From Squalus acanthias (Eukaryota), in the NCBI GenBank assembly GCA_030390025.1, contig CM059431.1:96474001-96538000 (forward strand): a stretch of DNA of 64,000 bases, in the 5' to 3' direction. The notes beneath the pieces are model-generated. The model saw only the letters and a list, made by a program, of their open reading frames with translations. It was not told the DNA's origin and ran no database searches. Positions 41,211-41,358 of the stretch are shown here, one piece after another; position 1 is the first letter of the stretch; the number at the start of each line of letters is the position of its first letter. The translations under genes and the position numbers were made by a program.

Positions 41211-41222
41211 CTGCTCCCTCAC

Positions 41223-41358
41223 GGGTGACTCGGGTCTCCTTCAGGCCGATGATTTGGGCGCCGAGTTTCCGCAGCTCCAGCCGCCGCCCGCGGTCGCGGA
41301 TCCCGTTCACATTCCAGCTCAGCAGGCGGAGCCCCGGGACCTCGGCCTCGGCCGCCAT
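41223..41358 (-). pseudogene. APEX2: Orphan first coding exon of an APEX2-like AP endonuclease
   Basis: ATG at 41358 gives MAAEAEVPGLRLLSWNVNGIRDRGRRLELRKLGAQIIGLKETRVT(R). This resembles the APEX2 N-terminus as I recall it (SWNINGIR...DIICLQETKVTR). A phase-1 donor C|GTGAGG follows at 41222-41217. No downstream exons are visible before the telomeric array. Confidence 0.72.

Follow-up and report, generated by a model that had tools for sequence, protein, structure and literature searches.

A partial copy of APEX2 beside a degenerate telomere-like array in a shark genome: a probable subtelomere-type duplicate

Elasmobranch APEX2, as represented by the RefSeq models from Chiloscyllium plagiosum (P0003), Carcharodon carcharias (P0005) and Mustelus asterias (P0004) with which we compared the locus described here, and by that of Rhincodon typus (XP_048449371.1), displays the motifs SWNVNGIR and xxxETRVT together with a shark-type N-terminal extension, and P0005 combines an EEP domain with a GRF zinc finger. 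Subtelomeric segmental duplications, for their part, carry partial genes. The telomere-associated repeat blocks of human TAR are treated in the available part of one study (PMC4427916), which there also describes healed human 18q breaks with directly attached telomeric repeats, mostly with short microhomology. A further parallel is offered by the CpG-island promoters of human TERRA, which in the accessible portion of another source (10.1101/2025.05.15.654290) are CpG-rich minisatellites of 61-, 29- and 37-bp repeats that have spread as segmental duplications.

In the window, i.e., the whole 64,000-nucleotide stretch of Squalus acanthias DNA analyzed here, we found a real copy of the APEX2 first exon that shares these motifs and the N-terminal extension. 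It lies on the minus strand at 41223..41358, with its ATG at 41358-41356, and comprises 136 coding nt to 41223, or 45 codons plus 1 nt of open frame including SWNVNGIR and IIGLKETRVT, at the end of which stands a phase-1 splice donor (GTGAGG; 41217..41222, minus strand). The codon count, the two motifs and the phase-1 donor had been listed in the initial annotation, which gave no strand; its span of 41217..41358 is correct at the ATG end and overruns the exon at the other, as it includes the six intron bases 41217-41222. In a tblastn comparison, Chiloscyllium APEX2 matches the exon with 70% identity over 46 amino acids and 62.4 bits, as against at most 26.9 bits in all 30 triplet-shuffles of the same 6-kb region, so the match is not due to chance. 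The peptide is 58-70% identical to elasmobranch APEX2, and in a blastp comparison with 128 retrieved proteins, nearly all of them APEX2, the five top scores belonged to sharks and rays. An unfiltered representative search (1.84 billion sequences) gave two matches, the credible one being a whale shark APEX2-like protein (E 8e-9, 68%). The other, the Enterococcus surface protein P0002, lacks the common motif and was set aside as spurious, and it is left out of the 127-protein counts below.

The exon peptide has the N-terminal WNxNGIR motif and similarity to the ExoIII family, and it is closest to APEX2, rather than to APEX1 or LINE endonucleases. A Pfam search of the peptide returned no family, and a word-based protein search with the 46-residue peptide retained none of 19 candidates at E<=10; the NCBIfam xth/exoDNase_III model matches it at E ~3e-4, far below whole-protein cut-offs. 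Its best PDB match is 6wcd_A (E 0.005), which we take to be Xenopus APE2. A structure of Xenopus APE2 does exist (PMC9732815, the available part of which does not give the code 6wcd_A). The catalytic Glu of the xxQET motif is kept as Glu41, as had been noted earlier; it would be the counterpart of E48 of human APEX2, whose E48Q/D197N form is described as catalytically dead in the accessible part of the pertinent study (PMC9900424). Unlike the elasmobranch genes, the window holds exon 1 only: the post-exon-1 parts of 10 shark, ray, chimaera or coelacanth APEX2 proteins find no match at E<1 within it, which agrees with the earlier remark that exon 2 is missing. With the complete set of EEP domain and GRF finger missing, the feature is a fragment of an APEX2 and not a working member of the family. 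As to disabling lesions, the exon itself has no stop or frameshift; there are two missense changes at conserved sites, a LINE upstream and no later exons before an assembly gap.

Public sequencing runs provide a view of other forms of this exon. Five of 20 runs listed contain at least 50% of the words, all of them DNA runs from two samples under organism label A, the label of the window's own organism, and one of these samples may be the window's source. Four runs (X4, X6, X10 and X19), among them three of the 15 with a small share of the words, were examined over 41190-41480, all as contigs, which drop rare variants; one of the four RNA runs under label A was examined. X10, a probable RNA run under that label (depth 48.9), covers 41222-41346 with 6 mismatches to the window in 125 nt. 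It departs from the window exactly at the donor and continues for another 255 nt, of which the 30 shown were hand-translated as R-D-L-L-D-E-P-T-A-I, which is how APEX2 exon 2 begins in P0004 and P0005. As X10 joins exon 2 exactly at the donor, intron 1 is in phase 1 and falls within an Arg codon, the one in VTR, just as the initial annotation had stated. The identification of the exon as APEX2 exon 1 hence has, besides its similarity scores, a near-identical sequence that is joined to exon 2.

The spliced form in X10 reads Gln40 and Ala22, has an N-terminus shorter by 6 nt and bears a different 5' UTR. If the 6-nt loss is placed at codons 7-8, it gives exactly the three unlisted mismatches (one of 13 placements tried); a loss within codons 3-6 together with three substitutions fits as well. 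X19 (label E, depth 2.6) has the three listed differences of X10 and the same 5' loose end, and it includes the first intron bases, which agree with those of the window, as does the donor. In X6 (label B) there are two exon-1 contigs, each of which runs on into the same GA-rich minisatellite as in the window. In the fuller one, the differences from the window are at the same three listed sites and the N-terminus has its long form; the second shows five changes more, and at 41326 the 37-bp repeat cuts it short, so that the ATG is lost. Orphan copies of exon 1 therefore recur, since one of the two in organism B lacks the ATG. Finally, X4, a DNA run under label A from another sample and study, 55% of which was read, carries 41190-41470 in a single contig with one difference, at 41241, where Lys40 becomes Gln; hence, the window form is no assembly error. 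The X4 contig extends 7 bases past the LINE junction, too few to count as bridging it, and the form that it carries is only two listed exon positions away from the fuller organism-B copy.

Because X10 joins a different exon 1 to APEX2 exon 2, the window copy is probably a paralog, and expression of APEX2 in this shark seems to rest on a copy that differs from it slightly. From these sequence comparisons, the window sequence and the spliced sequence would be paralogs within one genome. The window form was seen in no RNA run among the 20 listed, which we do not count as evidence.

The two residues of GLKE that depart from the usual CLQE had been read as two single-base changes of this copy, and this reading does not stand: the Gly is common to the spliced copy and both organism-B exon copies, and the Lys is absent from all four runs. 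At 41247, within the Gly codon (41245-41247, minus strand), none of the four runs differs from the window, although each covers this base away from its contig ends; the spliced gene of the lineage thus appears to have this Gly natively. Both the Cys and the Gln of CxQET are present in all 124 retrieved APEX2 proteins that have exon 1 (127 retrieved, 3 without exon 1). The spliced APEX2 of the lineage, to judge from its contigs, thus appears to have Gly where 124 of 124 others have Cys. E. coli exonuclease III reads GLQET at this point, so a Gly there is compatible with catalysis. Another departure from the elasmobranch proteins is a spacer of 16 residues versus the usual 18, which is apparently common to the spliced form, as the latter aligns without gaps. 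The window-specific residues are of two kinds. Lys40 is found only in this assembly, being absent even from the other individual with the same copy, and could reflect an error or else a variation private to this source. Asp22 is also present in X4, whereas the other three contig sets read Ala or Ser; neither Asp22 nor Lys40 is seen in any of the 124 proteins.

On the upstream side, the 5' UTR or proximal region with the first degenerate 37-bp units occupies 41359..41463 (minus strand), where the run contigs have loose ends, and beside the ATG the window is about 7 nt shorter than the spliced and organism-B forms. A 5'-truncated and frameshifted LINE 3' fragment of 887 bp (41464..42350, plus strand) is inserted 105 nt upstream of the ATG. 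It is flanked by target-site duplications on the plus strand, the left one at 41436..41463 being identical in 27 of 28 positions to the 28-bp right one at 42351..42378; this single mismatch compares with four in the next-best repeat unit, and a diagnostic 8-mer occurs at these two sites only in the window. We take the fragment to be RTE-like; a Pfam search of three of its frames gave no credible family, and a weak lead points to DUF6451 in the Atlas (0.89, 27% of members). The fragment parts the exon from most of a CpG-rich 37-bp minisatellite (42351..44542), a candidate promoter region of about 58 copies with 73% GC and a CpG observed/expected ratio of 0.83, or 0.85 with the LINE left out. 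At 44543-44574, and in connection with a loose end at 41441, X4 contigs resemble the proximal end of this array with several differences, a hint that organism A has further copies of it. On the proximal side of the block lies a second, internal degenerate telomeric tract (44785..45342, minus strand), which has the same orientation as the distal one and is 40% TTAGGG. Further along, the window contains a decayed Harbinger-like DNA transposon at 51169-52700 (DDE_Tnp_4 match with E 1.9e-6 at 51693-52007, minus strand), a young 23-bp minisatellite at 61149-62209 (46 copies, 97% identity) and, at the window's end, a 43-bp minisatellite (63661-64000). An Rfam search of the window gave no matches.

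On the 3' side of the exon, intron 1 starts with a GA-rich minisatellite (38626..41216, minus strand) of units of about 20-27 bp with 2.7% T and no polypyrimidine-AG acceptor, the same minisatellite that is found 3' of both organism-B exon copies. On the exon's strand, no acceptor-like site or AATAAA was found between the donor and the gap. The first telomeric repeat follows 2,597 nt after the donor, at the junction 38625/38626, in agreement with the 2.6 kb given by the initial annotation; the plain (TTAGGG)n of that account, however, is a degenerate and CTAGGG-rich telomere-like array of 19.4 kb (19250..38625, minus strand), 46% of which is canonical TTAGGG. Its G-strand runs in the exon's direction, which is the orientation that a left chromosome end should show. 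When the array is divided into 20 bins, TTAGGG accounts for 41-51% of each and does not increase outward, and the longest uninterrupted run has 7 units; CTAGGG makes up 16-25% of each kilobase from the second onward, whereas the first ~750 bp are nearly without it. Exact higher-order repeats, some as long as 350 bp, recur in the array with offsets including 819, 1093, 1907 and 2726 bp, and 7,937 of its 19,316 60-mer positions are repeated, against 0-26 in five unit shuffles. The CTAGGG-poor first 750 bases suggest an older root beyond which a satellite may have been amplified.

That the exon is followed by telomeric repeats is correct, but they are not the end of the sequence: the array stops distally at an assembly gap of 200 N (19050..19249), and 19 kb are scaffolded beyond, comprising a GA repeat, 61-bp and 39-bp satellites and a LINE. 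Just past the gap, a second GA-rich minisatellite (17790-19049) has 19/26-bp units in an orientation opposite to that of the intron minisatellite; the two are 65% alike, which may be compositional, and this stretch could represent a mis-joined neighbouring contig. The 61-bp satellite (9088-17783) is interrupted at about 14645-17475 by a 2.8-kb minus-strand LINE, apparently young, with open frames of 554 and 331 codons, which is presumably CR1/L2-like. The 39-bp AT-rich satellite (1-8755) has 224 copies, and its stop-free frames of up to 968 codons are by-products of the unit length. In three carpet sharks, FISH detected no interstitial telomeric sites according to the part of that work available (PMC7648076), which, by analogy from other species, mildly favours a near-terminal position for the array.

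We consider it likely that the window contains an unprocessed, DNA-level duplicate of the 5' end of APEX2 that sits in a subtelomere-type block and is cut in intron 1, another copy being the expressed one. The duplicate would comprise the CpG-rich 37-bp repeat, the 5' UTR, exon 1 with its donor and 2.6 kb from the start of intron 1, all transferred at the DNA level to a block that has a degenerate telomeric tract on either side, and the working APEX2 gene would be a different copy elsewhere. It may have originated by ectopic recombination or duplication among chromosome ends, aided by the flanking minisatellites. Once cut in intron 1, the copy would have been capped by a telomeric tract through old telomerase addition or capture, which are not distinguishable here, and this tract would later have decayed and been amplified as a satellite. 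The window copy, in such a scenario, would make no protein and would be drifting. An unprocessed fragment accords with what is found at the locus: parental intron and upstream DNA are kept, and the same minisatellites flank the organism-B copies. The spliced X10 form differs from the window form, and the window-specific Asp22 and Lys40 fall on conserved sites.

By analogy, the feature seems to behave like the partial gene copies of subtelomeric duplications. As in these and in human TAR, a gene fragment with its intron and minisatellites is enclosed by degenerate telomeric tracts, one distal and one internal, and the copies vary among related organisms. The block differs in being small, with about 6 kb between the tracts, and in having a distal tract that is a 19-kb higher-order satellite, in contrast to a short variant zone grading into pure repeats. 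A subtelomeric duplicate was one of the two readings put forward in the initial annotation and is the better of them.

The alternative that fares best, though we regard it as unlikely, is that this exon belongs to the real gene and that the species or population has no other APEX2 exon 1. Intron 1 would then contain a very long telomere-like satellite in which the assembly breaks, the later exons would lie beyond the gap or unplaced, and the RNA under label A would stem from a relative that is cryptic or was mislabelled. The exon's frame, ATG and donor are indeed intact, which also speaks against a duplicate, and what terminates the array is an N gap rather than the end of the sequence. In the independent DNA run X4, the window form alone is seen, in a contig that remains unbroken across ~75 nt apparently identical to the spliced form, where two copies might have split it; yet X4 was only 55% read, which makes the missing second copy weak evidence. 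As X10 and X19 look alike despite their different labels, the organism-A RNA label could be wrong. Further, shark APEX2 models often have broken 5' ends: three of the 127 lack exon 1, all of them from sharks or rays, and the whale shark model has 99 residues and stops after exon 2. Among the elasmobranch models, P0001, P0015, P0016 and P0048 are broken in their 5' parts, one stopping after exon 2, two lacking exons 1-2 (one of these starts with LINE-like residues) and one lacking exon 1; these four suggest that early APEX2 introns are hard to assemble across elasmobranchs. Against a single, split gene stand the label-A spliced contig with its other exon 1, the occurrence of Asp22 and Lys40 in none of 124 proteins, the LINE fragment 105 nt upstream of the ATG and the lack of later exons over the 41 kb that the window still covers downstream.

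A second alternative is that the copy was kept as a promoter cassette, in which the CpG-rich repeat together with exon 1 would drive transcription toward the array and so yield an unspliced TERRA-like RNA; we hold this to be distinctly improbable. The upstream repeat has the composition of a CpG island, and as in human TERRA promoters, CpG-rich tandem repeats lie upstream of a telomeric tract and face its G-strand, with no acceptor or AATAAA before the gap and with signs of spread by duplication in that a similar cassette recurs in organism B. The recurrence is equally explained by neutral subtelomeric duplication, however, and the island is split by the LINE insertion. In contrast to the human promoters, it apparently derives from the 5' end of a protein-coding gene and is at least 2.7 kb from the tract; the likeness is one of composition and orientation, and the 37-bp unit length, although the same as that of a human repeat, is not evidence of homology here. 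More broadly, in this shark lineage an APEX2 5' cassette made up of the 37-bp repeat, exon 1 and the GA minisatellite, free of acceptor and poly(A) signal, might, by analogy with those promoters, have been copied repeatedly to chromosome ends and serve as the promoter of a putative TERRA-like RNA that reads into the telomere-like satellite, a speculative notion that we consider improbable.

The other reading in the initial annotation, that a break in intron 1 of the real gene was healed by telomerase with a new telomere, so that a terminally deleted allele remained, is as a recent event highly improbable. The junction of repeats and minisatellite is indeed direct, with the repeats in register behind a G run and facing the right way, and the first ~750 bp of the array are unlike the rest; in the part of the 18q account at hand (PMC4427916), telomeric repeats likewise abut non-telomeric DNA with a short G-rich overlap. 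Despite this direct junction, the window repeats differ from those of the healed deletions in being degenerate and recombination-amplified. With canonical repeats at 46% overall, a uniform purity of 41-51%, no pure run above 7 units and repeated 60-mers, the array is a recombination-amplified satellite and not a fresh telomerase product, so its degenerate state and higher-order repeats throughout argue against recent healing. Nor is it a recently broken allele, because a second individual carries the exon form too, and this form has diverged from the spliced one. Healing in the distant past, with later decay of the array, is conceivable, and such an old version, acting on a duplicate, belongs to the preferred duplicate reading.

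Lastly, we give practically no credence to the exon peptide being the N-terminus of a LINE endonuclease (RTE, L1, Tx1 or CR1) or a chance frame in GC-rich repeat DNA. The window is indeed full of LINE remnants and one adjoins the exon, but that one stems from the 3' part of an element and lies on the opposite strand, the endonuclease-RT frame of the LINE within the window gives only 13 bits and no match, the best credible matches are to APEX2, including the whale shark protein, and a sequence 95% identical to the exon is spliced to APEX2 exon 2.

Our literature search, in which subscription papers were sparsely covered, found no paper on a shark APEX2 duplicate. Most likely, the locus is an ordinary leftover of duplication near a chromosome end. 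If the duplicate reading holds, it would be a clean shark case of a subtelomere-type duplication catching the first exon of a gene, although its value would be modest. For annotation, it carries the warning that in sharks the 5' end of APEX2 has repeats on its flanks, may exist in several copies and is often disrupted in gene models. A 19-kb higher-order CTAGGG/TTAGGG satellite of this kind would also hybridise to telomere probes. Were promoter co-option true, the locus would allow a non-mammalian TERRA promoter to be traced back to its origin in a DNA-repair gene.
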